From a virus (lineage: Duplodnaviria; Heunggongvirae; Uroviricota; Caudoviricetes): DNA of 64,000 nt. The position numbers were made by a program, and so were the translations under genes. Numbering within the stretch: position 1 is the first letter of the stretch; every line of letters starts with the position of its first letter. The stretch is taken from the IMG/VR virus record IMGVR_UViG_3300037467_000752; one strand, 5' to 3'. Shown in pieces: positions 3,265 to 61,628 of the stretch. Under the pieces are notes generated by a model. It did not search any database, was not told the origin of the DNA, and was given only the letters and a program-made list of their open reading frames with translations.

Positions 3265-3437
3265 CGGTGCAGCAATTGAAAGCTGCGTTCGAAGCATGGG
3301 AGAACAACCAACGCAGCAACCCGGAAAGCTTCCTTTCCAAAGAGGAAGTGGCGCGAATGGAAGTGGCTGATATTAGCGAGCAGCGTGCGCTGTACATGGC
3401 TGGTATCCTACGCAGTCAGGGCATCGCGGTGACTTGA
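3261..3437 (+). CDS. Hypothetical small protein (58 aa)
   Basis: ATGA overlap with the upstream stop. No recognisable domain. Confidence 0.3.
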   Translation: MTVQQLKAAFEAWENNQRSNPESFLSKEEVARMEVADISEQRALYMAGILRSQGIAVT

Positions 3438-5324: not shown

Positions 5325-5343
5325 CCAAGAAAGGAAGCAAGCA

Positions 5344-5805
5344 ATGGATGAGAACACATTTTCCGGGGCTTATGCCCGTAACACGGACCCCAGCACGTCG
5401 CATTGGGCTGCAAAGACGGTGGATGTCACTTACCTTGAAGGCGTGGTGCTGAATGCAATCAAGAAGTACCCGACGCTGGGCCTGACGCAAGACGAGTTGG
5501 TGGAGGTCACTGGCCTGCCCACGAACACCATTACACCGCGTTTCGCTACATTGCTGTCGAAGGGCCTCATCACTGCCGAAGGCACCCGTAAGGGCATCAG
5601 TGGCCGCAATCAACGTGTCCACCGTGGCGTGGCTGGTATCGCCGTGAACATTGCCCCGGAGCCTGCCAACAGCATCGTGCGTGAAATCGAGAACCGCCGA
5701 CAGGTGCGTGAAGCTACGGAACGAATCTCCCGGCTGAAGGAGGCTGCAGCGGCTGCTACGAGCGAAGCTGAAGCACTGGCGAAGCGGTACAACATCACTC
5801 TATGA
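5344..5805 (+). CDS. Hypothetical winged-helix DNA-binding protein
   Basis: Helix-turn-helix-like segment LTQDELVEVTGLPTNTITPRFATLLSKGLI and a C-terminal coiled coil. RBS gaaaggaag. Confidence 0.4.
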   Translation: MDENTFSGAYARNTDPSTSHWAAKTVDVTYLEGVVLNAIKKYPTLGLTQDELVEVTGLPTNTITPRFATLLSKGLITAEGTRKGISGRNQRVHRGVAGIAVNIAPEPANSIVREIENRRQVREATERISRLKEAAAAATSEAEALAKRYNITL

Positions 5806-5820
5806 AGAAGGAAATAAAGA

Positions 5821-6336
5821 ATGGCTGTGGAAGAAGTGGAGAAAATGGCTGGAATCCAGTCTAAGCCGCCTACTCAACTTGGCGTTGGCATCAATCCGAA
5901 GCAAGGCGCAGGCTCTGTGCAGCTTCCCATGTCGCTCGTTACTCCGTTGCTTCGTGCCAACATCGCTCTGGCGAAGTACAACGGCAAAGAAAAGTACGGC
6001 CTTGCCAACTTCATCGGCACGGAAGTGCTGATGTCCACATATCTCGATGCCATCTACCGCCACCTTGACAAGCTGTGTATGGGTGAGGAAGTGGACGAAT
6101 TGGATGGTGTGCCTCATATCGGCGCTATTGGCGCTGGGCTGGACATCATCTGTGCTGCCCGCGCTGCAGGAACGCTGGTGGATGACCGTGGACGTTGCGA
6201 CGGGCAACTGGAAGCCTACAAGGCTCTCACGCCGCTCGTGAAGCAACTGAAGGAACTTCACGCTGGCAAGAACCCTTATCACTACTACATGGTGAACAAG
6301 GAGAAAGACTTGCAAACAAAGAAGCAAGTGTGCTAG
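5821..6336 (+). CDS. Hypothetical protein
   Basis: RBS gaaggaaa present. No confident domain. Confidence 0.45.
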   Translation: MAVEEVEKMAGIQSKPPTQLGVGINPKQGAGSVQLPMSLVTPLLRANIALAKYNGKEKYGLANFIGTEVLMSTYLDAIYRHLDKLCMGEEVDELDGVPHIGAIGAGLDIICAARAAGTLVDDRGRCDGQLEAYKALTPLVKQLKELHAGKNPYHYYMVNKEKDLQTKKQVC

Positions 6337-7275: not shown

Positions 7276-7304
7276 TTGCAAGGAGTGTGGCTTCGTGCTA
7301 CACT
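7276..7304 (+). promoter_or_regulatory. Candidate promoter: TTGCAA, 17-nt spacer, TACACT
   Basis: Hexamers with a 17-nt spacer located 22 nt upstream of the HNH gene RBS. Confidence 0.35.
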
Positions 7305-7326
7305 CCTTTTTCATTTTGGAGGAAGC

Positions 7327-7869
7327 ATGGAAGAAGTGTGGAAGGATGTTGTTGGGTGGGAAGGTAGCTACGAAATCTCCAGCTTTGGAAGGCTCCGCTC
7401 CAAACCATTCCTGAAACGCGGCTGCGGACGTTCCGGGCCGTTCACATTCTGGACAAAGGAGCGCATACTAAAACCGTCCTTGAACGCAGACGGCTATGTA
7501 ATTTTCAGACTTCAGCGCGACGGTGTGAGGGAGAGTGAGGGAATACACAGACTGGTTGCCATTGCATTTTTGCCCAACCCGGACAACCTGCCAGAAGTCA
7601 ATCACAAGGACTCGGTAAGAAGCAACAATCATGCGGACAATCTGGAGTGGGTGACTAGCCAACAAAATGCGCGTCATGCATTCGACAGCGGTAATCGCAG
7701 TAACGCCAGAGAGCGTCATCCGAGGGCTGTGTTGAATGAGGACTTGGTGCGCAACATTCGTACCATGTATGCCGAGGGTGCGCGAGTTGTGGACATAGCT
7801 AGGGCGTTAGGGCTACAATACTGGACAGTAAGCCGGGTTGTACATAACAGAAATTGGAAGGAAAGATAA
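7327..7869 (+). CDS. HNH homing endonuclease (NUMOD4 plus HNH_3 type)
   Basis: NUMOD4-like segment WKDVVGWEGSYEISSFGRLRS. HNH motif NHKDSVRSNNHADNLEWVTSQQN. Its stop overlaps the polymerase ATG. Confidence 0.7.
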   Translation: MEEVWKDVVGWEGSYEISSFGRLRSKPFLKRGCGRSGPFTFWTKERILKPSLNADGYVIFRLQRDGVRESEGIHRLVAIAFLPNPDNLPEVNHKDSVRSNNHADNLEWVTSQQNARHAFDSGNRSNARERHPRAVLNEDLVRNIRTMYAEGARVVDIARALGLQYWTVSRVVHNRNWKER

Positions 7870-11582: not shown

Positions 11583-11888
11583 ATGAGAGGTTCCCATATA
11601 ACTATGAGCCACTTCGCCACACGGCGAGACTTCGAACAGGCGCAGGCCGATCACTCTGGCAAGAAGCTGGTGATGTATCATCCCCGTCCGGGTCTGGACT
11701 ACATCCAAGTGGGGCTGCGAGCTTCCGTGGTGCCTCTTGACCATCCGGACACTGTGTTCGTGACGAATGGGTACGAAGCCATCACGAGCGCCGTGCAATG
11801 GTACAACGAAGAAACGGGCGTGTTCGAAACGCTGAACAGCCGCTACGTTCCTAGCACTCTGGTGCAAGGGACGTTGGACCTTGGCTGA
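11583..11888 (+). CDS. Hypothetical protein
   Basis: RBS aaaggaaa. No domain assigned. Confidence 0.4.
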   Translation: MRGSHITMSHFATRRDFEQAQADHSGKKLVMYHPRPGLDYIQVGLRASVVPLDHPDTVFVTNGYEAITSAVQWYNEETGVFETLNSRYVPSTLVQGTLDLG

Positions 11889-12390
11889 CAGCGTACCCGC
11901 GTGGTTTGAACAGCTAGCAACTGACCGGCTGCGCTACGATGCAACATCCGGGCAGATACTGTTCAAGGTTGATTGCGGGAGGGCTAAGGCTGGAATAGTG
12001 GCAGACAAGCGGATGCCTAATGGATACCTGACGGTCAGGATTCAAAAAGATGGGGTCCGCGTTACAGTCTGTTCACACCGTATGGCTTGGTTCCTAGTTA
12101 CCGGAGCATGGCCCGCTGAAGAACTCGACCATATCAACAAGGTCCGGCACGACAACCGTATGGAGAATTTGCGCGAGTGCAACAGAAGTCTGAATGTAGT
12201 TCGGACTTTGCGCGAAGCAAGGACTCTCCCGCGAGGGGTTACGTGGGCAGGACACACGAACAAGACCAATCCGTATCTTGCTCAAATCGGCAACACGTAT
12301 ATCGGCTACTTCGGTACGCCAGAGGCTGCACATGCAGCGTATCTTGCTGCTTTTGAAAATAGGTATGGCTCTGAATGGAAGGAGTTTTGA
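11881..12390 (+). CDS. HNH homing endonuclease with an AP2 domain
   Basis: HNH_3 motif LDHINKVRHDNRMENLREC. AP2-like C-terminal segment RGVTW...YIGYFGTPEAAHAAY. Confidence 0.7.
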   Translation: MADSVPAWFEQLATDRLRYDATSGQILFKVDCGRAKAGIVADKRMPNGYLTVRIQKDGVRVTVCSHRMAWFLVTGAWPAEELDHINKVRHDNRMENLRECNRSLNVVRTLREARTLPRGVTWAGHTNKTNPYLAQIGNTYIGYFGTPEAAHAAYLAAFENRYGSEWKEF

Positions 12391-16243: not shown

Positions 16244-17092
16244 ATGAGCAGTAAGAAAACATGGCAGCAAGAGGCTGTCGCCTATCACGAGCAAGGGTTG
16301 TCGTGGCGAACGATTGCGGGGCTCTTGAACCTGCCGAAGTCCACCGTCAGTGACTACCTTCGTGGCTACGTGATTCTGAGCGACCGTTCAGGAAAGCTGA
16401 AGCTACAAGATGAAACGAAGGAAGACAATGGCCGTGTGCTGGTGCTGAGTGATATGCATATCCCTTACCATCATCCGAAGCTTCTTTCGTTCCTTGCTGG
16501 CTTGAAAGAGAAGTATCAGCCGACGCGGGTTATCAGCATCGGTGACGAACTGGACAAGCACGCGATGTCGTTTCATGACAGCGACCCGGATTTGGACAGC
16601 GCAGGCAAGGAACTGGACAAGGCTCGTGAGGTTGTGGCGAAGCTGGAGAAGATGTTTCCGCGTATGGACATCATTGACAGCAACCATGGCTCCATGCTGT
16701 ATCGCAAAGCGAAGCATCACGGCATCCCGCGCCAGTACCTGAAATCGTACAACGATGTTCTAGGCGTTGGTGAAGGATGGAAGTGGCACTACGATCTTAC
16801 GATCAAGTTGCCCGATGGGAACCCCGTGTACTTCCACCACGGGAAATCGAAGAACGGGCTGAGGTTGTCTCAGACGATGGGCATGTCGTGCGTTCAGGGG
16901 CATTACCACGAGGACTTCAATGTGCAATGGTGGGCGAATCCGCTGGGGTTGTACTTCTCAATGCAGGTTGGATGTTTGATCGACCCTGACAGCTTCGCCT
17001 TCGCCTATGCGAATGTGAACATCAAACGACAGATTATTGGCACTGGACTTATCATCAATGGACGACCTGTTCTTGAACCCATGCCACTCTGA
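16244..17092 (+). CDS. Calcineurin-like metallophosphoesterase with an N-terminal helix-turn-helix
   Basis: Motifs VLVLSDMHIPYHH, GDELD, SNHG and GHYHED. Confidence 0.65.
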   Translation: MSSKKTWQQEAVAYHEQGLSWRTIAGLLNLPKSTVSDYLRGYVILSDRSGKLKLQDETKEDNGRVLVLSDMHIPYHHPKLLSFLAGLKEKYQPTRVISIGDELDKHAMSFHDSDPDLDSAGKELDKAREVVAKLEKMFPRMDIIDSNHGSMLYRKAKHHGIPRQYLKSYNDVLGVGEGWKWHYDLTIKLPDGNPVYFHHGKSKNGLRLSQTMGMSCVQGHYHEDFNVQWWANPLGLYFSMQVGCLIDPDSFAFAYANVNIKRQIIGTGLIINGRPVLEPMPL

Positions 17093-17290: not shown

Positions 17291-17574
17291 TCGCCGCACA
17301 ACTGATGTTCGCCAACTTGCCGCTGTATGTCATGGCTATCTCAGAGGGTAAAGAAGTTGCCATCGTGAGGGCTGGTTCATTTCACCCGTTTTGGGATGAC
17401 GGTGAGCCGCCTGCGTTGTTTGACCAAAGGGGCTTTTTCATAGGTGGCCTAGAAGATGGGCGGAGTTATGAGTACGACAAGACATACAAGCTGGACGAGT
17501 GCCCTGCACTTGAGCAGTGGCTCCGACGCCAACATTTTTCGTTGGTGAACATGAGCGAAGTAGTAAAGGTTTAA
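17287..17574 (+). CDS. Hypothetical protein
   Basis: GTGA overlap start. No domain assigned. Confidence 0.4.
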   Translation: MIAAQLMFANLPLYVMAISEGKEVAIVRAGSFHPFWDDGEPPALFDQRGFFIGGLEDGRSYEYDKTYKLDECPALEQWLRRQHFSLVNMSEVVKV

Positions 17575-17588
17575 AGAAAGGAAAGACG

Positions 17589-18095
17589 ATGAGTAAAATT
17601 TGCATGGAATCGCTGTGGGCTTCTTACGAGAACATCCGCACGATGAACACCATCACTGGAAATCTTTCCGCCAGTGCTGGAATCGAGAAGGGCTTTGACA
17701 ACAAGCTGGATAGCCAACTTAGCTTTGTGTTTGAAGAACTGACGGAAGGCATCGATGCGTTGGAGCAAGGGGATGCACACAACTTCGGCAAGGAAGTAGT
17801 AGACATTTGGGTGACGGTGTGCGGCTTGATGCAGATCGCAGAGGCTGCGGGCTATGACATTGAAGAAAACATGCGCTACGTGGACTCCAACAACCTCGCT
17901 AAGTTTCCTTCGGAAATGCCGCGTGAAGTGCCGGAAGATTGCCACCGTGTTGTGCACAACGAAGAATTCAACCGCTTCGCTATCCTGCGCCGGGATGGGA
18001 AGTTCCTGAAGCCGAGGGGTTGGAAGAAGATTGACCCGAAGACGCTGAAGGCACCTGAAGGTATTTTTGCAAATCGTGAAGGAGCGCAGGCATGA
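17589..18095 (+). CDS. MazG-like nucleoside triphosphate pyrophosphohydrolase
   Basis: Segment ELTEGIDALEQGDAHNFGKEVVDIWVTVCGLMQIAEAAGYDIE matches the MazG EExxE/D helical motif. RBS aaagaaaggaaag. Confidence 0.5.
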   Translation: MSKICMESLWASYENIRTMNTITGNLSASAGIEKGFDNKLDSQLSFVFEELTEGIDALEQGDAHNFGKEVVDIWVTVCGLMQIAEAAGYDIEENMRYVDSNNLAKFPSEMPREVPEDCHRVVHNEEFNRFAILRRDGKFLKPRGWKKIDPKTLKAPEGIFANREGAQA

Positions 18096-18700
18096 AAGCA
18101 ATCAGCGTCTATGACCTGAAGCGTATCCCGGCACTGTCGCACCTGACGTATTTCGATCTTGTGCACCCGGACAATGACAAGCTGGTGAATCCGTATCTGC
18201 ACGACATCGGCTTCAATCTGAACAAGGGTCTGAGCTACACGGTTAGCCAGCATCGCACGCTTGCGAATACCGTGGAAATCGGCTTCGTGATTCGTGGTGA
18301 AGTGAGAACTGACCGTGAATTCCTGAATAGCTCGCTTGCTACGCTGGAAGACAAAATGGCGGCAGCGGCTTTGACGGACATGAGCCTGTGTGCGGAACTG
18401 TGCCGAATGATGAATCAAGCATCCAGCATCGGTGCCTACAGTAGTGCAACTCGTGATGGTGAGCCTGATACGGACTTCCCGGAGAGCCTGACGAATCCCG
18501 ATGAAGCTGAAATCGTGAGCAAGATTCGGCAACTGGAACAAATTCTGGATGACATTCGGGGTAGCCAGCATAAGGAAGATGGAAGCCTGAAGCTGCCCGA
18601 GGATTACCAGAAGCAACCTGACATGAAGCTTGCAAGGAAGACCATCCGGCGACACAAGGAAGTGCTTACCAACTTGAGAATCGGTAAGCTTGACGACTAG
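18092..18700 (+). CDS. Hypothetical protein
   Basis: ATGA overlap start. No domain assigned. Confidence 0.45.
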   Translation: MKAISVYDLKRIPALSHLTYFDLVHPDNDKLVNPYLHDIGFNLNKGLSYTVSQHRTLANTVEIGFVIRGEVRTDREFLNSSLATLEDKMAAAALTDMSLCAELCRMMNQASSIGAYSSATRDGEPDTDFPESLTNPDEAEIVSKIRQLEQILDDIRGSQHKEDGSLKLPEDYQKQPDMKLARKTIRRHKEVLTNLRIGKLDD

Positions 18701-18799: not shown

Positions 18800-21613
18800 A
18801 TGGACATTTCCCAACAAGTCTTCAGTGACATCATCATTTACAACAAGTACGCCAAATACATTCCCGCCCTCAAGCGCCGCGAAACGTGGGAGGAAATCTG
18901 TGATCGCAATGCAGCGATGCACCTGAAGAAGTTCCCGCAGCTTGAGGACAGCATCCGAGCCGTGTATACGGATTACGTCAAGACTAAGAAGGTGCTCCCG
19001 TCCATGCGATCCATGCAATTCGGCGGGCGTCCCATTGAACTCAACCACACAAGAATCTACAACTGCTGCCTACTCCCCGTGGACAATGTAGTGGCCTTTG
19101 GTGAAACCATGTTCCTGCTGCTGGGAGGCACAGGCGTAGGCTACAGCGTGCAGAAGCATCATATTGAAAAGCTGCCCGTCATCCAAGGACCGAAGACCAC
19201 ACGCAGGCGCTACCTTGTCTCCGATTCGATTGAAGGCTGGGGCGACGCGGTGAAGATGCTCCTGAAGGCGTACGCAGAGGGCAGGGCCAACCCTGATTTT
19301 GATTTTCGCGATATCCGTCCGAAGGGTGCCACGCTGGTAACTGCTGGCGGCAAGGCTCCCGGCCCGGAACCCCTGCGCATCTGTCTGGAAAATCTCCGCA
19401 CGGTGTTGAATGGGGCTGTCGGTCGCAAGCTGACGACGCTGGAGTGCCATGATATGCAGTGTCACATTGCCGATGCTGTCCTTTCTGGAGGTATCCGCCG
19501 TGCAGCCATGATCGCGTTCTTCAGCCATGACGACCTTGACATGGTGACTTGCAAGAGCGGTGCATGGTGGGAACTGAACCCCCAGCGCGGGCGTGCGAAC
19601 AACTCCGCTGTGTTGCACAGGGATGAAATCGATCAAGACGCATTTCAACGTCTGTGGCAGAGAGTTGAAGAGTCTAACGCGGGGGAGCCGGGCGTCTATT
19701 GGACTAACGATAAGGAGATTCTGAGCAACCCGTGCTTTAGGGGCGATATGGAACTGCTTACCTCCGAAGGCTACAAACGAATCGATAGCCTCGTGGGTAA
19801 GGAATTCCTCAACGTCAATAAGGACGGCAACCTCACCGCTGGCAAGGTGTGGTCCACTGGCGTAAAGCCTGTTGTGGAAGTCCGCTTTCGTCACAGCAGG
19901 GCCGGAAGGAAGCCTAGCCTGTACGTCACACCCAATCACACATTCATGCTGAATGACGGAACGGAGTGCGAGGCTAAAGACTTGGCAGGTAAGCGGCTTA
20001 TGCCTTACTTTACCGGCAAGGCTATTCCTCGCGTTCAAGAAGATTTCAAAGCTGGCTTCATGCTCGGCGATGCGTGCCTGACGGACGCTGCAAATCCTGA
20101 CAAGGCTGGAATTGTGGTGTGCATTGGCGAGAATGACGTAGAAGTAGCGGACATTTTTGGGGTCACCCTGTCAGACAACCATCGGCATTACCTCCAATCT
20201 GCCAGATCGCTTGTGGACAAGTATGGCTTGCCCGTTACACAGACGTTTGATAGGCAGCTTGGTGATAACCGCAGTGACGACTTCCTCATGGGTCTGTACT
20301 CTGCAAACGGGTGTGTGATTGCATCTGGTAAACGTGTTGCTCTCAAGACGACATCTAAGTTGCTTGCACAGCAAGTAGTTGAGTGGCTGCAGGCCAAAGG
20401 AATGACGCCGTATGTGACGACAAATAAGGCGAAGCGGATTCAATGGCCTAACGGAGAATACGAAAGCCGGGAGAGCTATGACGTTAACCTCGCTGGGCTT
20501 GAGAACCTGATTCGGTTTGCGGAAGTCGTTTCGTTTGTGCATGGCTACAAGCGTGAAGCACTGGCACAAGCAATTCGCGAAAGCTCTCCTACTGTTTCGG
20601 CTGTTCTGTCGGCGGGGGAAGCTGAAGTGTTTGACTTCACTGAGCCTGAAACTCATTGGGGCATCGTCAATGGCGTTGTTGCGCACAACTGTGTCGAGGC
20701 TACGTTGCGAATGTTCTCGTTCTGCAACCTTACTACGGTTAACGCATCGGATGTCGAGACGCAAGATGAGTTGAACAAACGAGTAGCCGCTGCTACCCTC
20801 ATCGGCACTCTGCAAGCATCCTATACAGACTTCCACTATCTGCGGGATGAATGGAAGAAGGTTACGGAAGAAGACGCCCTTATCGGTGTGTCCATGACGG
20901 GCATCGGCTCTGGCAGGGTGTTGAAACTGGACTTGACGGAAGCCGCACGCATTGTGGTGACAGTGAACAAGGATGTGGCATCGCTAGTCGGCATTAATAC
21001 GGCTGCTCGGACCTCGCTTCTCAAGCCTGAAGGCACTGCCTCTATCGTGGTGGGCTCTTCATCTGGCATCCATGCATGGCACGCTCCGTTCTACCGTCGC
21101 CGTATGCGCCTTGGAAAGAACGAGCCGCTGTACGCCTACGTGAAGGCCAACTTCCCGGAGCTTGTGGAGGATTGCCACTTCAAACCGCACCTTGAAGCCG
21201 TGCTGACGATTCCGCAGAAAGCTCCCGAGGGCTCCATCTTGCGCGATGAGTCGTTCTTGGATTTGCTGGAGCGTGTTCGCAGGTTCAATCAGGAGTGGAT
21301 TGCTCCGGGCCATAATCGCGGCGTGCAGAAGCACAACGTATCTTGCACCATCAGCCTGAAGCCTGACGAGTGGGAAGCCTGCGGTGAGTGGATGTGGAAG
21401 CATCGCAACGAGTACAACGGCATCAGCGTGTTGCCTTATGACGGTGGGACGTACATCCAAGCGCCGTTCGAAGACTGCACGGAAGAAGAGTACAATGCGA
21501 TGATGTCGCTGCTTCATAGCATCGATCTTACGCAGGTGATTGAAACCGACGACGCTACGGGCTTTACGCAGGAAGCGGCCTGTGCTGGCGGCCAATGCGA
21601 GGTTATCCTGTAA
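18800..21613 (+). CDS. Ribonucleotide reductase large subunit interrupted by an intein
   Basis: RNR active-site context EPGVYWTND...SNPC, resuming as VEATL; the spliced product reads SNPCVEATL. C-terminal CAGGQC redox pair. No beta-subunit gene lies adjacent, so a class II single-chain enzyme is suggested. Confidence 0.75.
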   Translation: MDISQQVFSDIIIYNKYAKYIPALKRRETWEEICDRNAAMHLKKFPQLEDSIRAVYTDYVKTKKVLPSMRSMQFGGRPIELNHTRIYNCCLLPVDNVVAFGETMFLLLGGTGVGYSVQKHHIEKLPVIQGPKTTRRRYLVSDSIEGWGDAVKMLLKAYAEGRANPDFDFRDIRPKGATLVTAGGKAPGPEPLRICLENLRTVLNGAVGRKLTTLECHDMQCHIADAVLSGGIRRAAMIAFFSHDDLDMVTCKSGAWWELNPQRGRANNSAVLHRDEIDQDAFQRLWQRVEESNAGEPGVYWTNDKEILSNPCFRGDMELLTSEGYKRIDSLVGKEFLNVNKDGNLTAGKVWSTGVKPVVEVRFRHSRAGRKPSLYVTPNHTFMLNDGTECEAKDLAGKRLMPYFTGKAIPRVQEDFKAGFMLGDACLTDAANPDKAGIVVCIGENDVEVADIFGVTLSDNHRHYLQSARSLVDKYGLPVTQTFDRQLGDNRSDDFLMGLYSANGCVIASGKRVALKTTSKLLAQQVVEWLQAKGMTPYVTTNKAKRIQWPNGEYESRESYDVNLAGLENLIRFAEVVSFVHGYKREALAQAIRESSPTVSAVLSAGEAEVFDFTEPETHWGIVNGVVAHNCVEATLRMFSFCNLTTVNASDVETQDELNKRVAAATLIGTLQASYTDFHYLRDEWKKVTEEDALIGVSMTGIGSGRVLKLDLTEAARIVVTVNKDVASLVGINTAARTSLLKPEGTASIVVGSSSGIHAWHAPFYRRRMRLGKNEPLYAYVKANFPELVEDCHFKPHLEAVLTIPQKAPEGSILRDESFLDLLERVRRFNQEWIAPGHNRGVQKHNVSCTISLKPDEWEACGEWMWKHRNEYNGISVLPYDGGTYIQAPFEDCTEEEYNAMMSLLHSIDLTQVIETDDATGFTQEAACAGGQCEVIL
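19733..20689 (+). other. Intein (319 aa) with a LAGLIDADG homing endonuclease, inserted at the RNR active site
   Basis: Starts with the Cys of CFRGDMELLTSEGYK. Block B TPNHTFML. Ends VVAHN, followed by the +1 Cys. Two LAGLIDADG-like motifs (GFMLGDACL and FLMGLYSANG). Confidence 0.7.
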
Positions 21614-21867
21614 TGCTTACCGTCTATTCGACCCCGGCTTGTCCGGGCTGTACCGCAGTCAAAGCCCTGCTGCTTCGCTTCAACATTCCGTTTGAAGTGA
21701 AGATGGTAACGGAGGATGAGGGAGCGAAAGCTTTCTTCAAGGCCAAGGGCCATCGTTCCGTGCCACAGGTGTACGCTGGCGATGTCTACGTGGGCGACTT
21801 CGCTGCCGTATCCAAGACAGGGGCTGCAGACCTAATGGCTTTAGCAACGAAACAACAAAAGACTTGA
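21613..21867 (+). CDS. Glutaredoxin/thioredoxin-fold redox protein (NrdH/Grx-like)
   Basis: CPGC active site at the N-terminus of a roughly 85-aa thioredoxin fold. Immediately downstream of the RNR gene (TAATG overlap). Confidence 0.6.
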   Translation: MLTVYSTPACPGCTAVKALLLRFNIPFEVKMVTEDEGAKAFFKAKGHRSVPQVYAGDVYVGDFAAVSKTGAADLMALATKQQKT

Positions 21868-22913: not shown

Positions 22914-23239
22914 AAAATCTGCTTAGCAAGTACAGCCCCAGCGTTCACGCGGTGGCAGTGAAGCGGTTGATCGAACTGCGTGACGGTGCTACTGCCAGAA
23001 GCGCAACTGCTGGCATTTGCAAGGACATCGCGTTCGCCTTCATCGCCAATGGCATCCACCTTGGCGAAGAACCTGTGGACTCTGGCTACGACTACTGCCG
23101 AGACGTGTTCCGCGATATGGACCTGCCTGATGACCCGCTCGATTACGGTGTCCACCTTATGTGGGAAGGCGAAGCAGGGACAACTCGTCGTGCGTTTGCG
23201 GGCGAAATGGCTGCACATATTCAGGAGAACTACCTGTGA
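22910..23239 (+). CDS. Hypothetical protein
   Basis: RBS aaggagagaag. No domain assigned. Confidence 0.45.
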   Translation: MKNLLSKYSPSVHAVAVKRLIELRDGATARSATAGICKDIAFAFIANGIHLGEEPVDSGYDYCRDVFRDMDLPDDPLDYGVHLMWEGEAGTTRRAFAGEMAAHIQENYL

Positions 23240-24060
23240 TCGACCTGTACATCCACGGTCGCAAGGTGCCTGTCACGTGGAAGCGATTCCCCGGTGGCGA
23301 AACGCTCGTGCGTATCGAGACTCCGCAAGCTGGCGTGGACCTCGGCGCACGCATCGTCATGCGCTTCGAAGGCAACGATGACCTGTTCAATCTCGCCTTG
23401 CTCGTGGACGCCATCCGTCGCAATGTGAATGTGGGCCGAATCACGTTGGACATGCCCTACCTTCCCTACGCACGTCAGGATCGTGTGTGCAGCCCCGGCG
23501 AATCACTTAGCGTGAAAGTTGCGTGCGACTTCATCAACAGTCTTAAGTTCGATGCTGTGTTCGTGAAGGACATCCACTCTGAAGTTGGCGTTGCGTTACT
23601 GGATAATCTGCGGCACATGACCCAAGCGGATGCTGCCTTCTGGTTTACCGGAGCCCTGCGCCGCGATGAAACAGTGCTAGTGAGCCCGGATGCCGGGGCC
23701 AACAAGAAGGTGCTGACGTTCGCCAAGGAACACTCCTTCGATGACGTGGTGCGTGCAGACAAGCTGCGCGACACTCGCACGGGAGCAATCCTTGACACCA
23801 TCGTGTACAGCGAACATATCGGCAGCAGAAACTTCCTCATCTTGGACGACATCTGCGATGGCGGCAGAACGTTCGTGGAACTTGCGAAGAAGCTGCGACC
23901 TCTGACGGAAGGGAAGATTTTCCTGTACGTCACGCACGGCATCTTCTCGGCTGGCGTGGATGTTTTCAACGGCATCGTTGATCGCATCTACGTCACGAAC
24001 TACATGGGCAAGGCTGCAGACTCCCTGCATCCACTCATCATCAGCAACCACAACAAGTAA
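23236..24060 (+). CDS. prs: Ribose-phosphate pyrophosphokinase (PRPP synthetase)
   Basis: Motif ITLDMPYLPYARQDRV matches the diagnostic Prs motif. PRPP-binding loop ILDDICDGGRT. GTGA overlap start. Confidence 0.8.
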   Translation: MIDLYIHGRKVPVTWKRFPGGETLVRIETPQAGVDLGARIVMRFEGNDDLFNLALLVDAIRRNVNVGRITLDMPYLPYARQDRVCSPGESLSVKVACDFINSLKFDAVFVKDIHSEVGVALLDNLRHMTQADAAFWFTGALRRDETVLVSPDAGANKKVLTFAKEHSFDDVVRADKLRDTRTGAILDTIVYSEHIGSRNFLILDDICDGGRTFVELAKKLRPLTEGKIFLYVTHGIFSAGVDVFNGIVDRIYVTNYMGKAADSLHPLIISNHNK

Positions 24061-49218: not shown

Positions 49219-50655
49219 CTATTTAGAGAGCCTTGGAAGCGGACTTGCTTGGCTCATATCAGGGATACGGAACGTAGGAAGCACCACTTGCTTGCAAAGC
49301 TGGTTGAACGCATCGGACGTGGCGTCCACCATGTCATCGTGTTGATTTCGCTCGCCAGTGAAGGTTTCCAGTTCGGTAAAGTATTCATCGTTCCACTCTC
49401 CACGGACACAACGCACAAGACCGGCCTCGCACATAGCAGCGAAAGGCAGGAAGCGTTGTACCTTGCCAGAGTGCCCTGACATCGTGACGGAGCGTACAAT
49501 AAAGCCACGCTCTGCCAAATATCTTACGAAGAAGGTATTAGCTGCCTTGCCACCAGCACCTGCATCCCGAGGAATGGTCAGCGGCACGTCCATGCCGTCT
49601 TCCGTGCCTGTTGCAGCAATATCCGTCAGCACGCCGTCCGTCAATTTGCGGAAGCGTTTTACATGCTCGATGTAGTAGATGCCGTTTTTATCGCGAGATA
49701 AGAGGACGCCCGCCGTGTAGTCAGGATCGGGATTCACTTCTGATGGCACGGATGCCGCCAAGTCCCATGACCGTACACGTGTAGCATCCACCGGGGGCGC
49801 ACCGACGATTGGCACCCAAGCACGTTGAAAGTAGCTGGAGCCTTCCACCACAGCAGTCCACGAGCCGTGCAGGAATCTAAGTTGGGCCACGCGAGTTTGC
49901 GCAAGCAGGTTGGCGAGATAACTTGGGTTGTTTTTCAGCAGGACGGGGTTGTCATAAACCGTCATAGGGATAAAACGGAAAGACATCGGAATGAAGTCTT
50001 TTCCTAATTTGTATCCTGCTCCATGCTCTGCGTACAATGCCTCTGGTGACTCCCCCCACTTCACCTTACCCGTCAGAATAACGAACCAGCGCGTGATGTT
50101 TTCTGTGCCAGACACCGGAACGCCAGTAGTCTTATCGAGACACCACTCAACCCACGAATACAGCCACGATTGGCGGCTGGGGTTGCACGTAATGGTGACA
50201 CTGAGTTTGCCCTTGTAGCGTGCACCGCGAAGACGACCAATCAAGGCAAGGATGTCTTCCATCTGAAATTCAGCGCCTTCGTCCACGATGATGTTCGTAG
50301 CCTGCCAGCCTTGCACGTCTTTGCGATCAGCGGGCATAGCTACGAATTTAATAACAGCGCCGTTCGGAAACACCCATTCCAATGGTTGGACTCTCCATTC
50401 AGCCCCAAAATGCGGGTAAATATGCTTAGCCTCATCCACCAGCCCGCCAATAGCCTTAATCAGCGGGTAGGTAAGACGGACAATAAGAACTTTAGCGTTA
50501 GGGTCTTGGCAATATTTAAGCGCCTTCAATAGCGCCATGTAAGACTTCCCTCCCCCCGCTCCACCGCCTACTAACAACACATCTGTTTCATCGTCCGTAA
50601 GGACTAGACGCTGCTTTTCGCTACAGGGCCGGGTGTCGAATTGTTCTTCGGACAT
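49219..50655 (-). CDS. Terminase large subunit
   Basis: Walker A LLVGGGAGGGKS near the N-terminus. Nuclease-domain acidic residues. RBS AGGAGGG lies 4 nt upstream of ATG 50655, giving a start inside the longer ORF call. Confidence 0.85.
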   Translation of the reverse strand: MSEEQFDTRPCSEKQRLVLTDDETDVLLVGGGAGGGKSYMALLKALKYCQDPNAKVLIVRLTYPLIKAIGGLVDEAKHIYPHFGAEWRVQPLEWVFPNGAVIKFVAMPADRKDVQGWQATNIIVDEGAEFQMEDILALIGRLRGARYKGKLSVTITCNPSRQSWLYSWVEWCLDKTTGVPVSGTENITRWFVILTGKVKWGESPEALYAEHGAGYKLGKDFIPMSFRFIPMTVYDNPVLLKNNPSYLANLLAQTRVAQLRFLHGSWTAVVEGSSYFQRAWVPIVGAPPVDATRVRSWDLAASVPSEVNPDPDYTAGVLLSRDKNGIYYIEHVKRFRKLTDGVLTDIAATGTEDGMDVPLTIPRDAGAGGKAANTFFVRYLAERGFIVRSVTMSGHSGKVQRFLPFAAMCEAGLVRCVRGEWNDEYFTELETFTGERNQHDDMVDATSDAFNQLCKQVVLPTFRIPDMSQASPLPRLSK

Positions 50656-51333
50656 GTTGCCCTCCTGTTTTGTTTCTTCCAACGACAAAAGCCCAAGCCT
50701 CCACTGAAGGCTTAGGCATTGAGCTTTTGCGACCCCGTGCCACGCTACAAACATGCTCCGGGGTGTTGGCTGGTCATTGCTACCAGCCCTCTCCACAATT
50801 AGTCCCCGCTGTTGTTTCTGCACGCATACGGGCCGCGTGTGCCGTTTGTTTAGACAGGACGCGCTCCTGTTCTTCCCATCCCACGAGAATCGAATTAGTG
50901 CTGGGTTATCGCCAGCGAGAATTCCCTACAGCCTAGCGTCCTAGACCTTCACACGTAAATCCGTGATGTCGCACTCCCCACAGTGGAGAGCCCTGTCATT
51001 TCAGACCGAGACAGGTTTGACGGGATACTCTTTATGTTCGTCCCGCTTACCATCCATGCGGGTCTGCTGTTTCGTCGCAGAGGTATTTTCTCGCTTCACA
51101 GCGGTACTCGTTTTTAACGTCCCCAAGGTAGGTGATAGTTTTCGCCCACAGCCAAATGTGTAAGGGCTGTGTCGCGGGCTATGCCCTAGAAGCGAAAATT
51201 GCTTGTGGTTTGTCGTAGCCCCTGAAAGGAGGAAAGGCAGGGCAGGCATGGTTCACCCACGCTTCTCAATGCATACGCATGTACCTGAAGCCCTACGAGG
51301 TTGATCGCTGTAGGCGACATCAGGCCGACTCAC
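50656..51333 (-). other. 678-nt ORF-free region where a small terminase and cos/pac site would be expected
   Basis: All three minus-strand frames are broken by stops; the only ORF is 82 aa of low complexity. Carries repeated GCGTATGC and ACTAATT motifs. Confidence 0.4.
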
Positions 51334-51720
51334 TCAGTAGCTCTTACCGTCTGCGTATCGTTGACGGCGAGAGTGTCTTCCGTTCCCCTTGTTCTTCGCT
51401 TTGTATGTTGGCGTTTGACTGTGGCAGTTTGGACACAAGCAAAGGTTGGAAGGCTGATTGTTGGACGAGTTACCGTCCTTGTGTTCTAATTCCAATGTCA
51501 GTGGTTTTTCGCACCACTCTGACAAGCCGCAGCACGAACACTTGTAGCCGTCACGCCGGATAACTGCCTTCTTGGCAGAACGCGGGTCTGTAAGCGTTGT
51601 CTCACCAGCTAAGAACTTCTCATACTTCTTGCGAAAAGAGAACTCGTGCTGACACGATATGCTGCAATAGCTGTTTCTCGATAGCGACGTTGGTTCGCCG
51701 CAAGTACGGCAACCCGACAT
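51334..51720 (-). CDS. HNH endonuclease (terminase-associated type)
   Basis: Motif CSCCG...LELEHKDGNSSNNQPSNLCLCPNCH. Located one gene upstream of the large terminase, as in HK97 gp74-type packaging HNH proteins. Confidence 0.75.
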   Translation of the reverse strand: MSGCRTCGEPTSLSRNSYCSISCQHEFSFRKKYEKFLAGETTLTDPRSAKKAVIRRDGYKCSCCGLSEWCEKPLTLELEHKDGNSSNNQPSNLCLCPNCHSQTPTYKAKNKGNGRHSRRQRYADGKSY

Positions 51721-52022: not shown

Positions 52023-52285
52023 ATGACAAGGTGTTTACGTGCCCTCGATACTCACGACACGAAGCTATTTTCCCTGACGGACTTACGTGTGTACTAGCGC
52101 CTTGGCAAACGGGGTGGGATTCAAACTCACAACGCACGGATTTGGAGCCCGGCCCTTTATCAGTTAAGTGTACCCGCCTGTATTCTTGGCCCCTGTGACG
52201 CGGGGCCGTGCGACCTGTTTATGACTCTTGGTAGCAGGCTACCGCAGGGCTGTTAGATTTAAGCCCATAGCTTCCGCTTAGATTC

Positions 52286-52366: not shown

Positions 52367-52445
52367 TGGTAGCAACGCCTTGGAGTCGAACCAAGCACCT
52401 TCGCCTTATGAGGGCGCTGCTCTAACCGCTGAGCTAGCCTGCTAT
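52367..52445 (-). tRNA. tRNA-like gene with anticodon CAU (Met or Ile2 type) and an irregular acceptor stem
   Basis: Perfect D-arm (GCUC-AGCGGUUA-GAGC), anticodon loop CUCAUAA and T-arm CUUGG-UUCGACU-CCAAG. The acceptor pairs poorly, with an extra nucleotide before CCA. Confidence 0.4.
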
Positions 52446-53363: not shown

Positions 53364-54656
53364 TTAGCCTACTTTCCAGTTTGTCCCGTCAGAGTAGACG
53401 GGGGTTGATACGGTGCCACCACCGGACACAGTTGCGCCGAATGTTGGTGCGGATGCGTCAGAAACGTGGGAACGTGCGCCGTTACCAGCCGTGGAAGCAC
53501 TAGGTAGTGTAGCCACCGTAAAGACTTGCGGCTTCAGGTTGCGAAGTTTCAAATCCGCGAACGATCCTGCAGAACCATTGTTGACTTCAAGCACATTAGA
53601 GGCACTCCACGACAGTCCTGCGGTGAGCGTCAGCGACGTTTGTGCACCGTCCGTCCACTTGAGGCCGTGCCCTGTGCTGCCCGCTAAAATAGGCCCGGAC
53701 GTTCCAAACGCGAAGCGGTCGGAGCCGTTGACGTATACGAAAATTCGCCCAGAGTCCGACGCAGCGTTATAGCGCAAACCGGAGTTGCTGCCAAAAAATC
53801 TGAAACCCGGCGCTGATGAGCTATCATTAGCAACAAACTGTGCGGAATACAACTTGCCAGTTGTATCGTCAAAGCTGAGTGCTGCATCAGCGAAGAATGC
53901 ACCAGCCTTGTTGTACTGGACTTGCGTGGTAGCACCAGCCGGTGTGGCAGCGACAGCGATGTTACCAGCACCGAGAACGGAATTCCCATTGACGGTCTTA
54001 ATGTTCGTTCCAGACACCAGCGTATCTTGCTTGGCATTCAATGCGGCTTGTTGAGCCGTCGAAACTGGCTTGCTGGCATCACTGGTGTTATCAACGTTTC
54101 CAAGGCCCACATCAACCTTGCCGAGCGTCACTGCGCCAGTCTTCCCAGCTACGGATTGCACGGGAGCCGCAGAAGCAGCCTCGGACGCTGTTGTGTACTG
54201 CGGGTGTGGGTCAAGGGCTGCTTCATGAGCAGCTACGGCGGCTGTAGCTGCTCCCACTGCATCTTTGCCATCGAGGGCAGCCTGCTGAGCTGTGGAAATG
54301 GGCTTCTCTGCGTCACTCGTGTTGTCTACACTACCAAGCCCCACACTGGCCTTGGTGAGCCCCGCAACAGCGGCAGCGGCTGTCCCTGCAGCTTCCTTTC
54401 CATCGAGTTCGGCTTGTAACCCAGTAACGTCCGCAATCTGGTGCGTGTGGGCGCTAGGAGGAAACGTAGCGGGCTTACCCTGCAACGTGTCCCACGTGGC
54501 ACCCCCGAGAGAATCCAGCCATTCTTGCTCAGTGCCCACAAAACCATTATCGACAGCAACGTCATATGCACTCTTGGCAACGCCCTGCGGGCCGGGGCTA
54601 GCCACTTCAATGACCGCAGGTTGAACTTCCCGCACCACGAGTGTAGTATCAGTCAT
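53364..54656 (-). CDS. Tail fibre protein
   Basis: Duplicated segment VGLG(S/N)VDNTSDA(E/S)KP(I/V)STAQQAAL(D/N), of phage tail-fibre repeat type. Gly/Thr/Ser-rich C-terminal receptor-binding-like domain ending GTNWKVG. Confidence 0.65.
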   Translation of the reverse strand: MTDTTLVVREVQPAVIEVASPGPQGVAKSAYDVAVDNGFVGTEQEWLDSLGGATWDTLQGKPATFPPSAHTHQIADVTGLQAELDGKEAAGTAAAAVAGLTKASVGLGSVDNTSDAEKPISTAQQAALDGKDAVGAATAAVAAHEAALDPHPQYTTASEAASAAPVQSVAGKTGAVTLGKVDVGLGNVDNTSDASKPVSTAQQAALNAKQDTLVSGTNIKTVNGNSVLGAGNIAVAATPAGATTQVQYNKAGAFFADAALSFDDTTGKLYSAQFVANDSSSAPGFRFFGSNSGLRYNAASDSGRIFVYVNGSDRFAFGTSGPILAGSTGHGLKWTDGAQTSLTLTAGLSWSASNVLEVNNGSAGSFADLKLRNLKPQVFTVATLPSASTAGNGARSHVSDASAPTFGATVSGGGTVSTPVYSDGTNWKVG

Positions 54657-55003
54657 CGCGTCACTTCCTTCGTTACTAACACGCTTCCGGCGATGAGACG
54701 AACAACATCCCCACCTGACATCACGATTTCAAGATCATACACCCCGTACTCCCAAGTAAACCCACTGGTTGTCACGTCGTCTAAGACAAGAGAAATGGTG
54801 CCATCAGCACCGCCAAGGGTGATGCTGCCATCTTCAGTCGTAAGGGAAGCCAGCACCGTGTTGGAGCTAGCCGTGCTTCTGACTTGCATTCTGGCTGCGC
54901 AACCTGTCAAGTCTACCGGGCTTAGCGGGTTTCCCGCCTTCCAAACCAAAGACTGCCGGAATGTCTCTCCTTGGTTGATTGTGATGTTGACGGCTGCTAC
55001 CAT
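54653..55003 (-). CDS. Hypothetical structural protein (Ig-like)
   Basis: Beta-rich 116-aa protein upstream of the tail fibre gene. ATGA overlap. Confidence 0.4.
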   Translation of the reverse strand: MVAAVNITINQGETFRQSLVWKAGNPLSPVDLTGCAARMQVRSTASSNTVLASLTTEDGSITLGGADGTISLVLDDVTTSGFTWEYGVYDLEIVMSGGDVVRLIAGSVLVTKEVTR

Positions 55004-55022
55004 CTTTCTTCCTTTTGTCTTT

Positions 55023-55400
55023 TTAGACTTGACGCACGTTGTCGAAGTCCAGCTTCGGCCCCGGCAAGGTGTTCGTGGGCTTGCCGCCTTCGCCTAAGGG
55101 GATGGGTTGACCCTTTGCCCCACCCAGCTTCGCTTGGGCTATCAGCCGTGCCATGTTGTCATCGTTGATTTGCTTGTTTGCAGCCAGCACAAAGGTCAGA
55201 ATTCTCTCTGCCGCTTGCTGACGCCGCAGGCTATCCGCCTTCTCGTCTTCTAGCACGGAAGTCAGGAAGTCAACTGCCTTCTTCGATGCCTTGTCCAATG
55301 CCTTTGCCAGCTTTGTCAGTTCATGCTCGTCCTTCAGGAACGTAATCACGGCTGTGGTAGTGCTGTCTGCGTTCGGCACGGTAACTTCTGTTTGACTCAC
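55023..55400 (-). CDS. Hypothetical protein; first gene of the minus-strand late operon
   Basis: RBS AAGGAGG lies 5 nt upstream of the GTG at 55400, inside the longer ORF call. Confidence 0.4.
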   Translation of the reverse strand: MSQTEVTVPNADSTTTAVITFLKDEHELTKLAKALDKASKKAVDFLTSVLEDEKADSLRRQQAAERILTFVLAANKQINDDNMARLIAQAKLGGAKGQPIPLGEGGKPTNTLPGPKLDFDNVRQV

Positions 55401-55433
55401 TCTAACCTCCTTACTTGCACAGTTAAAGTCTCT

Positions 55434-55461
55434 AGTGTAGCACATAAACAACAGTTGTCAA
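55434..55461 (-). promoter_or_regulatory. Leftward promoter for the structural operon: TTGACA, 16-nt spacer, TACACT on the minus strand
   Basis: Hexamers read on the minus strand, about 35 nt upstream of the GTG start. Confidence 0.45.
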
Positions 55462-55488
55462 GCGGTAAGCTTGATTCCTAGGTTGTTT

Positions 55489-55712
55489 GCTATGCTTAAG
55501 CATACGCTACAGCAGGGCTAGGCCACTATTTACTAACCAAACTGACAATCCAGAGAACTGCTGTAGCGTATGCTTAAGCAGGCTGAAGCAGATGTTTCAG
55601 TAAGCTTCTTGTTAGAAGCTAGGTTAGAAGTAATGGTGGGCTTAGTTGTACGCTGAAGCATACGGCTGCAGCAGATGCTTAAGCAGGGGCTTAGTTGTGC
55701 GGTGCTGAAACG
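55489..55712. repeat. Cluster of palindromic operator-like repeats in the divergent control region
   Basis: Perfect 14-bp palindrome TATGCTTAAGCATA (55491-55504). 23-bp inverted repeat 55493-55515 / 55559-55581. Core GCTTAAGCA occurs three times. Direct repeats GGGCTTAGTTGT at 55638 and 55688. Confidence 0.6.
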
Positions 55713-55767
55713 TCATTATACAGGGCTGAAAAATCGTGTCAAGGCCGTTCGTCGGTGTAGGGGTATT

Positions 55768-55787
55768 ATGTTGTTTTCATACAACAT
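55768..55787. promoter_or_regulatory. Inverted repeat ATGTTGT-tttcat-ACAACAT abutting the -35 of the rightward promoter
   Basis: Perfect 7-bp arms located 12 nt upstream of TTGACT. Confidence 0.45.
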
Positions 55788-55799
55788 ATGGTTCGTTGC

Positions 55800-55828
55800 T
55801 TGACTTGTAGGACTACTCCGACTACAAT
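55800..55828 (+). promoter_or_regulatory. Rightward sigma70-like promoter: TTGACT, 17-nt spacer, TACAAT
   Basis: Consensus hexamers, followed by RBS aaaggag and a TTG-initiated small ORF. Confidence 0.55.
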
Positions 55829-55856
55829 CATAGGTAGCTAGAAAGGAGCTAAGCAA

Positions 55857-56018
55857 TTGAACGTATACTGGAGAAACAGCAGAGGCACTCTGTCACAGGC
55901 TGAAGTGGCAACGTCAGACCACTTTGAGGGCATTTTGGAAGTCAAGGAGTTCCTTGTTCAGAGCGGCGAAGGCTACAACGAACCCGTGCTAGCCGTCATT
56001 CGTGGAGGCAAAGCATGA
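55857..56018 (+). CDS. Hypothetical small protein (53 aa; TTG start)
   Basis: RBS aaaggag lies 8 nt upstream of the TTG. First gene after the regulated promoter. Confidence 0.35.
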   Translation: MNVYWRNSRGTLSQAEVATSDHFEGILEVKEFLVQSGEGYNEPVLAVIRGGKA

Positions 56019-58235: not shown

Positions 58236-58240
58236 CGATG

Positions 58241-58273
58241 AGCCTACTGCTTCGGCGGTAGGCTTTTTTTTTG
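58241..58273 (+). terminator. Strong intrinsic terminator
   Basis: Stem AGCCTACTGC-TTCG-GCGGTAGGCT (10 bp with one G-U pair and a UUCG loop), followed by nine T residues. Confidence 0.75.
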
Positions 58274-58308
58274 CTTAAGCCTTGCTTTCCTTACTTGCTG
58301 TGGTATGA

Positions 58309-58366
58309 TGCACGCATTGGGCGGGTGAAGCTGGGACAAGTGCACATGGCGGGTTCGATTCCCGTC
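58309..58366 (+). ncRNA. Truncated tRNA-like element: acceptor stem plus T-arm plus CCA, with no D or anticodon arm
   Basis: Segment GGGCGGG...GCGGG-TTCGATT-CCCGT-CCCGTCC-A-CCA. Only 58 nt between the acceptor 5' strand and CCA. Confidence 0.35.
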
Positions 58367-58397
58367 CCGTCCACCAACATTGAAAAGGAGAGACACT

Positions 58398-60916: not shown

Positions 60917-61092
60917 ATTGGTTTGTGATGTTGAACATGGCGAACGGCTGGATTACTCCGTTGGTGGACGACAATGGGGTGGCGATGTTCGAAACCTACC
61001 AAGAAGCTAAGAAAGCAGCCCATGATAACCTACTCGGGCGTGCTTACGGAGCTATTGTATTTAACACGTTAGATGATGGGCACGACGTATGA
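60913..61092 (+). CDS. Hypothetical small protein (59 aa)
   Basis: RBS gaaggagaaaag. ATGA overlaps. Confidence 0.35.
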   Translation: MNWFVMLNMANGWITPLVDDNGVAMFETYQEAKKAAHDNLLGRAYGAIVFNTLDDGHDV

Positions 61093-61628
61093 GCAACGAA
61101 AAATGGGATAAGCGGTTTCTGGACCTTGCTGTGCTAGTGGCATCGTGGTCCAAAGACCCTAGCACGCAAACCGGGGCTGTGATCGTCACTGCCGACCGTA
61201 AGGGTGTCTTCATCGGCTACAACGGCTTCCCGCGTCCGATGTTTGACATGGAGCACCTGTACGCAGACCGCGAGCAAAAGTACAGCCGCATCATCCACTG
61301 CGAAATGAACGCACTGCTGCAGGCTGGTCCTGCCGCTGAAGGAGCTACGCTGTACACGTGGCCGTTTGCTTCCTGTGATCGTTGTTTCGTACACATGGCA
61401 CAAGGCGGCATCAAACGCTTCGTCGCGCCGAGGCTGACGGGGGAGCGGGCCGAACGGTGGGAGCCCTCTCTGCGCAAGACGCGGATGTATTCCGTGGAAA
61501 TGGGCCTGCAACTGGATGAGATTGAGTATGAGCCTCAAGTCAAGGTGGACGTTGCTGGCGTGCAGGAAAACCAGAGGGCATGGGACAAGTACCAAGCCTC
61601 TCGCAACATCATCTTAGGTGGAAAGTGA
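61089..61628 (+). CDS. dCMP deaminase (cytidine/deoxycytidylate deaminase family)
   Basis: Zinc-binding motifs HCEMNAL and SCDRC. Confidence 0.7.
   Translation: MSNEKWDKRFLDLAVLVASWSKDPSTQTGAVIVTADRKGVFIGYNGFPRPMFDMEHLYADREQKYSRIIHCEMNALLQAGPAAEGATLYTWPFASCDRCFVHMAQGGIKRFVAPRLTGERAERWEPSLRKTRMYSVEMGLQLDEIEYEPQVKVDVAGVQENQRAWDKYQASRNIILGGK

Follow-up and report, generated by a model that had tools for sequence, protein, structure and literature searches.

The window analysed here, 64,000 nucleotides of IMG/VR record IMGVR_UViG_3300037467_000752, makes up most of the genome (about 87 kb) of an uncultivated tailed phage, and the locus under study is the intergenic region at 55401-55856, where a block of leftward genes and a block of rightward genes diverge. 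An 87,099-bp contig carries the same protein set as the window, and the locus is found in identical copies in three SRA assemblies. Genes are directed rightward from position 1 to about 28000, leftward from about 28000 to 55400, and rightward again from 55857. The leftward block includes an open reading frame (ORF) of 2223 amino acids (aa), the large terminase, a tRNA cluster, a tail fibre and an LtfC-like chaperone; the rightward block beyond 55857 consists of small early genes, PhoH, a ClpP-like protease, and genes of nucleotide metabolism and replication. An initial annotation of this DNA had placed a divergent control region between late leftward and accessory rightward operons, and the divergence of a structural block from an early/nucleotide-metabolism block is confirmed. 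Between them lie three predicted promoters, a conserved inverted repeat, and an array of the short palindromes TGCTTAAGCA and GCTNNAGC at 55491-55685 (table).

Promoters and the inverted repeat between them

The promoters and their start sites are pattern predictions; a scan of 1.3 kb returned four promoter-like sites where 0.7 was expected. The best match in the region is the distal leftward promoter, PL1, which stands back-to-back with the rightward promoter, PR, with 57 bp between their -35 boxes, and the proximal leftward promoter, PL2, completes the order PL2, array, PL1, inverted repeat, PR. The two divergent promoters of the initial annotation correspond to PL2 and PR and are both upheld, but PL1 had been missed, and the picture of two promoters flanking a single operator field gives way to one in which the array occupies a leader of about 250 nucleotides (nt) between the tandem promoters PL1 and PL2.

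Relatives were gathered from contigs that encode homologues of the flanking proteins. This collection comprises eight metagenome lineages (the window, L027 with L030, L025, L021, L020, L029, L037 and L038), whose adjacent proteins share 40-88% identity with those of the window (46-88% for the 125-aa product of the first leftward gene and 40-64% for the small product of the first rightward gene). Protein-based scans of IMG/VR yielded one distant locus with an unrelated intergenic region (L015) and nothing otherwise, and scans of viral and metagenome collections with the PL1 core pattern yielded nothing, or two unrelated bacterial contigs. Another route to relatives, through P0024, was abandoned, having led to a different type of phage without the divergent region. 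In alignments, the core common to all eight lineages is PL1, the sequence GACGTT directly after its -10 element, TGTTGT-N6-ACAACA, and PR. The longer sequence AATGACGTT, which runs from the PL1 -10 into the start region, is also invariant in all eight, as is the back-to-back layout of PL1 and PR; PL2 is kept in L027, and an equivalent proximal promoter is found in seven of the eight lineages.

The inverted repeat between PL1 and PR had been described as touching the -35 of the rightward promoter. The repeat itself is confirmed, but 12 nt separate it from that -35 element in the window, compared to 0-3 nt in five of the seven relatives. Four pairs of its half-sites, GTTG/CAAC, never vary in the eight lineages, the 6-nt spacer varies freely, and no pair is changed on both sides; because of this combination the repeat looks like a protein-binding palindrome, and its pattern of conservation would be that of such a site and gives no support to an RNA stem. 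The distance from the centre of the repeat to the PL1 -35 is 35.5 nt in seven lineages and 25.5 nt in L037, a difference of one helical turn, and the distance to the PR -35 is 9.5, 12.5, 17.5 or 22.5 nt among lineages. We infer that the palindrome is probably in phase with PL1, at about -70 or, in L037, about -60.

Within the conserved block between the inverted repeat and the PL1 -35, at 55745-55753 and 2 nt upstream of that -35, is the sole exact copy of CCGTTCGTC in the 64 kb. This 9-mer is the core binding consensus of AlgR, a LytTR-family regulator of Pseudomonas (PMC4064291). The RB3 site of algD also lies at about -45, and the nearest cultured relatives of the phage infect Pseudomonas and Acinetobacter. 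The match was made post hoc, to one among many known motifs, and most relatives have one to three changes in it; a link to AlgR is a possible lead only. Readings of the conserved block as a sigma-32, a sigma-54 or an additional sigma-70 promoter were rejected in a by-eye check because the spacings do not fit.

The palindrome array and its conservation

The array is set apart from the remainder of the window by its enrichment in a few motifs. The sequence GCTNNAGC occurs eight times in 221 bp against an expectation of 0.17 (P ~1e-11), three of the four copies of GCTTAAGC in the whole 64 kb fall here, and no other place in the window has a local direct repeat or a local inverted repeat that ranks as high. 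A motif search elsewhere, which the initial annotation had proposed as a check, found the array motifs to be specific to the locus in the window with the exception of one 9-mer at 58272. The perfect 14-bp palindrome TATGCTTAAGCATA that had been reported is present as site S1, and the third core that had been reported is present as site S3. The 23-nt inverted repeat is likewise perfect in the window, with arms 42 nt apart, although its second arm occupies 55558-55580 and not 55559-55581. The supposed tandem repeats fared less well: the two copies of GGGCTTAGTTGT (at 55638 and 55687) are 49 bp apart, and the second is absent from the closest relative. The TGCTTAAGCA sites all keep clear of the -35 and -10 hexamers, S3 spanning about +23 to +32 relative to PL1 and S1 about -66 to -75 relative to PL2.

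Features of the intergenic region and the large terminase gene. Promoter start sites are predicted.
Feature	Position	Strand	Remarks
Large terminase	49219-50823		leftward block; 4.5 kb from the array
First leftward gene start	GTG 55400-55398; ribosome-binding site GGAGG 55410-55406	-	from sequence
PL2, proximal leftward promoter, TTGACA-16-TACACT, TG extended -10	55461-55434	-	predicted start ~55427
Site S1, 14-bp palindrome TATGCTTAAGCATA	55491-55504		core TGCTTAAGCA at 55493-55502; centre ~-70.5 from predicted PL2 start; invariant in L027
Left arm of 23-nt inverted repeat, TGCTTAAGCATACGCTACAGCAG	55493-55515		three substitutions in L027, none compensated
Right arm of 23-nt inverted repeat	55558-55580		holds S2; four substitutions in L027
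Site S2, TGCTTAAGCA	55571-55580		invariant in L027
Degenerate site GGCTGAAGCA	55581-55590		8/10 matches; abuts S2
Short inverted repeat AGCTTCT-TGTT-AGAAGCT	55603-55620		arms kept in L027, loop longer by 1 nt
First copy of GGGCTTAGTTGT	55638-55649	+	changed to TGGCTAAGCTGT in L027
Composite, roughly symmetric unit	55651-55685		CGCTGAAGCA, GCTGCAGC and S3; left part diverged in L027
Degenerate site CGCTGAAGCA	55651-55660		part of composite unit
Palindrome GCTGCAGC	55665-55672		part of composite unit
Site S3, TGCTTAAGCA	55676-55685		centre ~+27.5 from predicted PL1 start; invariant in L027
Second copy of GGGCTTAGTTGT	55687-55698	+	missing from L027/L030 through a ~14-nt deletion
PL1, distal leftward promoter, TTGACA-16-TATAAT	55742-55715	-	12/12 consensus; present in 8/8 lineages; predicted start near 55708
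Conserved block GGCCGTTCGTCGGTGTAGGGGTATT	55743-55767		between PL1 -35 and inverted repeat; conserved in 7/8 lineages
Inverted repeat ATGTTGT-TTTCAT-ACAACAT	55768-55787		conserved core TGTTGT-N6-ACAACA
PR, rightward promoter, TTGACT-17-TACAAT	55800-55828	+	predicted start ~55835; conserved in 8 lineages
First rightward gene start, ribosome-binding site AAGGAG and TTG (55857)	55843-55859	+	from protein alignment

Comparison with L027, which is 81% identical to the window across the array, separates the motifs into those that are kept and those that drift. Each of the three ATGCTTAAGCA sites is embedded in a perfectly conserved run of 12-16 nt in L027; the fraction of 11-nt windows that are perfect in L027 is 13%, which gives a chance of about 0.002 for all three. 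Seven substitutions (three in one arm and four in the other), none of them compensatory, have accumulated in the outer part of the 23-nt repeat and leave 18 pairs and one G-U of 23, and the other GCTNNAGC motifs also differ between the window and L027. The spacings between sites are 77 and 102 nt in L027, compared to 78 and 105 nt in the window. The invariance of the three ATGCTTAAGCA sites against an 81% background, together with that of the half-sites between PL1 and PR, bears out the earlier description of the palindromes as operator-like. The array is not coding, because the indels between the window and L027 (1, 1, 2 and 2 nt) are not multiples of three; two 42-aa ORFs, at 55533-55661 (-) and 55675-55803 (+), were rejected as genes on account of frameshifting indels in L027/L030.

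The array is confined to two of the eight lineages, the window and L027 (88% identity in the adjacent protein), whereas five lack it; the repeats are not a conserved component of the switch. The second array-bearing lineage comes from SRR20363635, and those without an array include contigs of JGI 3300072490, GCA_040384025.1 and GCA_040384425.1. From the PL2 -35 to the PL1 -10 the distance is 253 nt in the window and 238 nt in L027 with L030. It is 40-43 nt in L021, L029 and L038, which have a short gap without an array, and 69 nt in L025, where the gap is AT-rich; it does not apply to L020, which is without PL2. The eighth lineage, L037 (JGI 3300053229, Ga0537299_0000571), has a distance of 269 nt and, between PL1 and PL2 in related flanks, a different palindrome, CTCCGGAG, present three times at 1984, 2043 and 2111 (1984-2118), ahead of a homologue (50% identity) of the window's LtfC-like tail-fibre gene. 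The proximal palindrome and the PL2 -10 are separated by 58.5 nt in the window and in L037 alike, and by 4 nt more in L027. Because L037 has three CTCCGGAG palindromes in the same position, the slot between PL1 and PL2 is suggested to be a recurrent place for putative operator arrays. The enrichment and the pattern of conservation and loss are, like the sequence features themselves, direct observations. L037 also has about 190 nt of extra sequence between PR and its first rightward gene.

Neighbouring genes, candidate regulators and comparable systems

The first leftward gene encodes a 125-aa helical protein to which no function was assigned. Identical calls were made on five other contigs, and homologues at 46-88% identity are those of the related lineages, but no homologue was found among sequenced phages, and the protein has no terminase, helix-turn-helix (HTH) or DNA-binding signature. 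Its structure model is all-helical and of low confidence (pLDDT 58), and a sequence search of the PDB found only designed helical bundles. The window, L025, L029 and L038 have this gene at the head of the leftward operon, and in L020 and L021 it comes after the tail-fibre module; because the gene order differs (53364-55400 in the window), the module boundary beside the control region has been rearranged. The first rightward gene encodes a protein of 53 aa, the N-terminus of which has a conserved VYW(K/R) motif, and the alignment supports TTG 55857 as its probable true start in place of the GTG at 55905 chosen by the gene caller.

A protein that binds the array was sought among the genes of the window. 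No DNA-binding domain was found in the flanking genes. Of the two HTH proteins that had been proposed as binders, the product of 16244-17092 is for the most part a metallo-phosphoesterase (phrog_221, residues 47-281), the N-terminus of which has a short stretch resembling an HTH (HTH_23), and the product of 5281-5805 has only a sub-threshold winged-helix match. Scans for pairs of TGCTTAAGCA returned 14 loci in viral contigs, none similar to the window in DNA or protein, and ten loci in GTDB (Nostoc, Bacteroidota and Gallionella) that are repetitive, encode proteins unlike those of the window and give no hint of a host regulon; nothing relevant to TGCTTAAGCA came out of a literature search. As an array motif, the palindrome core turns up again in other phage groups (L001, L002 and L005-L013): unrelated viral contigs L002, L005 and L007-L013 (GC 0.34-0.43) have dense intergenic arrays of TTTTGCTTAAGCAAAA and TTGCCTAAGCAA, and L001 and L006 (GC 0.56) have three copies of AAGCATGCTTAAGCAT beside a CACTATAGTGACCATG tandem repeat.

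The nearest cultured phages, with hosts in Pseudomonas and Acinetobacter, are just 42-48% identical in protein sequence, and thus no literature is directly applicable; a DNA similarity search of sequenced phages found no match. The closest studied system is the central control region of phi29 and Nf, in which the promoters A2c, A2b and A3 (tandem early and divergent late) are accompanied by p4 sites and by boxes for the host regulator Spo0A, the number and position of which differ between related phages (PMC2731898). Like that system, the present locus belongs to a lytic phage, has tandem promoters in one direction and a divergent promoter in the other, has several short sites (candidate sites, in this case) between and around the promoters, and varies among related phage groups in how many sites there are and where they lie, a variation that changes behaviour in phi29/Nf. 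The use of both phage and host regulators would be a further likeness, but here it is proposed from sequence alone. The late promoter of phi29 has no -35 and needs p4, whereas all three promoters here have a good -35 and -10; the tandem pair here faces the structural genes, unlike the tandem early promoters of phi29; and the motifs are unrelated, with no sequence or protein in common.

In lambdoid phages (OR1-3/OL1-3) and in Mu (O1-O3), operators overlap core promoters and repressor genes flank them. The present locus resembles these switches in having three related palindromic sites, divergent promoters and a candidate specificity that differs between related phages, but no site falls on a -35 or -10 hexamer, neither flanking gene is repressor-like, and no lysogeny functions were seen in the 64 kb examined. 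The back-to-back promoters and operator-like palindromes of a divergent promoter switch are thus present, but no TGCTTAAGCA site occupies a core promoter, and the array is present in two of eight lineages. The region is an ordinary kind of phage control region.

Elsewhere in the window, near-consensus sigma-70 promoters of the form TTGACx-N16/17-TAnAnT are found at 3434, 12572, 18690, 27068, 34566, 43120, 49179, 52760 and 56730. About 12 such promoters are distributed over both gene blocks, the structural region included, which suggests that the phage relies on the host sigma-70 polymerase throughout. A strong terminator at 58240-58265 is followed by a TGGTATGAT -10-like element and, 3' of this element and within 58240-58377, by a tRNA-like acceptor and T-arm with a terminal CCA (GGCGGGTTCGATTCCCGTCCCGTCCACCA), which was not called by ARAGORN and has a sub-threshold Rfam match to tmRNA (14 bits). 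Two additional tRNAs of the leftward cluster, at 52106-52179 and 52370-52443 (-), were found by Rfam and not reported by ARAGORN. ORFs of nucleotide metabolism (5821-6336, 17517-18095, 18092-18700, 21595-21867, 23161-24060 and 61089-61628) comprise a dATP/dGTP diphosphohydrolase N-terminal domain, a MazG-like protein, a thymidylate-synthase-like protein, glutaredoxin, PRPP synthetase and dCMP deaminase; a modified base in the phage DNA is conceivable, and no PurZ-like match was found among the ORFs tested. At least four ORFs encode HNH endonucleases (245-802, 7276-7869, 11881-12390 and 51334-51720 (-)), one of them with NUMOD4 and HTH_38 domains, which suggests that homing elements are active in the genome.

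Interpretation of the array and its alternatives

The explanation that is tentatively favoured, at somewhat below an even chance, is that a conserved promoter hub has gained, in this array, a lineage-specific cluster of operators for a dimeric DNA-binding protein. PL1 would fire leftward into the operon of tail-fibre, tRNA, terminase and structural genes, and PR would fire rightward into the small early genes and those for PhoH, the ClpP-like protease, nucleotide metabolism and replication. The palindrome TGTTGT-N6-ACAACA would be bound by a dimeric regulator, with PL1 as its main target and PR as a secondary one. The gap between PL1 and PL2, about 40 nt in most relatives, has expanded in the window phage and its closest relative to about 240-250 nt, which are taken up by three TGCTTAAGCA palindromes, two degenerate copies and further GCTNNAGC palindromes. 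These sites would serve as operators for a second dimeric protein, specific to the lineage and encoded by either phage or host, which would occupy positions +12 to +28 relative to PL1 and about -70 relative to PL2, with looping possible between sites 78 and 105 bp apart. The outcome might be a gate on transcription that reads through from the very strong PL1 to the structural operon, a tuning of PL2, or both. The binding of a protein, the identity of that protein and the direction of its effect are what we infer in this model.

Several points weigh against the operator cluster. No array site overlaps a core promoter element, and the promoters and starts from which its positions are reckoned are all predictions. 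The geometry is not strict, in that S1 of L027 is 4 nt farther from PL2 and S3 about 15 nt nearer to PL1, and the evidence for conservation of the array is one pairwise comparison. The array is dispensable for the phage group, being absent from five of eight lineages. No binder was found: the HTH-like ORFs of the window are weak or enzyme-borne, and the flanking genes offer no DNA-binding domain.

The same palindromes might act in RNA, since the whole array would be transcribed from PL1 as part of a structured leader of about 300 nt that includes the 23-bp hairpin. RNase III would cleave this leader, or the leader would in some other way govern how stable the structural-operon mRNA is or how it is translated. 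In length, a perfect stem of 23 bp suffices for RNase III, the leader (z = -5.1) folds much better than shuffled sequences do, and the AGCTTCT/AGAAGCT repeat tolerates a change of 1 nt in its loop, which suits a stem better than a protein site of fixed spacing. However, the opposite strand folds equally well (z = -5.2), and therefore the fold signal reflects DNA symmetry only; the long stem carries its seven substitutions in L027 uncompensated; the 11-nt palindromes are conserved and the pairing is not; a search of Rfam found no family above noise, with hairpin-caused microRNA hits at noise level only; and most relatives lack such a leader. A role in RNA is accordingly improbable, and the comparison favours short palindromic sites, presumably protein-binding, over RNA structure. 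Also improbable is an origin of replication of the iteron type, which the initial annotation had offered as an alternative, or a terminase recognition site resembling pac or cosB, located at the strand switch and activated by transcription from PL1. At some phage origins (T7, T4 and lambda) strong promoters read into repeats, and cosB of lambda is defined by three R sites adjoining the small terminase gene; the repeat cluster is where gene blocks diverge, near the minimum of cumulative GC skew, and the equivalent gap of L025, about 60 nt, is very AT-rich. The skew minimum, however, coincides with the change of gene orientation. The units are palindromic or inverted and include no direct iterons; there is no AT-rich unwinding element, AT reaching a maximum of 65% per 40-nt window in an array that is 54% AT; and no DnaA box within one mismatch and no IHF consensus was found, which together tell against the iteron alternative. 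The large terminase gene is distant and the adjacent 125-aa protein lacks a terminase signature, and neither an essential origin nor an essential packaging site should be absent from five of eight related lineages.

That the array has no function, being either a recombination scar at the edge of an exchanged tail-fibre module or a locally duplicated, selfish palindromic insertion resembling a miniature inverted-repeat transposable element (MITE), is unlikely, though somewhat less so than the two readings above. Only two of eight lineages have the TGCTTAAGCA array, gene order in the left flank is rearranged, with the 125-aa gene before or after the tail-fibre module, and the HNH genes indicate mobile DNA active in the genome. 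The array contains an 88-bp unit that ends in perfect 23-bp terminal inverted repeats, and drift goes unchecked in the GCTNNAGC motifs, in the GGGCTTAGTTGT copies and in the long inverted repeat. Nevertheless, the three ATGCTTAAGCA sites are perfectly conserved over a diverging background, and L037 independently has three copies of another palindrome in the same position. For a MITE-like element in particular, the flanks (TA and GG) form no target-site duplication, and there is no second copy in 64 kb. The array of L037 also raises an extension of the operator cluster, still doubtful, in which the slot is an exchangeable specificity cassette, the lineages having inserted three-copy arrays of unrelated palindromes (TGCTTAAGCA in one case, CTCCGGAG in L037) into a single position. 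If this were true, with the arrays cognate to different regulators that might include host transcription factors, late or tail-fibre expression would be coupled to a given host or physiological state.

Knowledge of regulation in uncultivated lytic phages is almost nil. The locus offers a compact, conserved hub of three predicted promoters with one conserved palindrome and one lineage-variable array. If the variable arrays do not serve different regulators, it is a normal phage intergenic control region; if they do, it would show the rewiring of late-gene control among closely related lytic phages.

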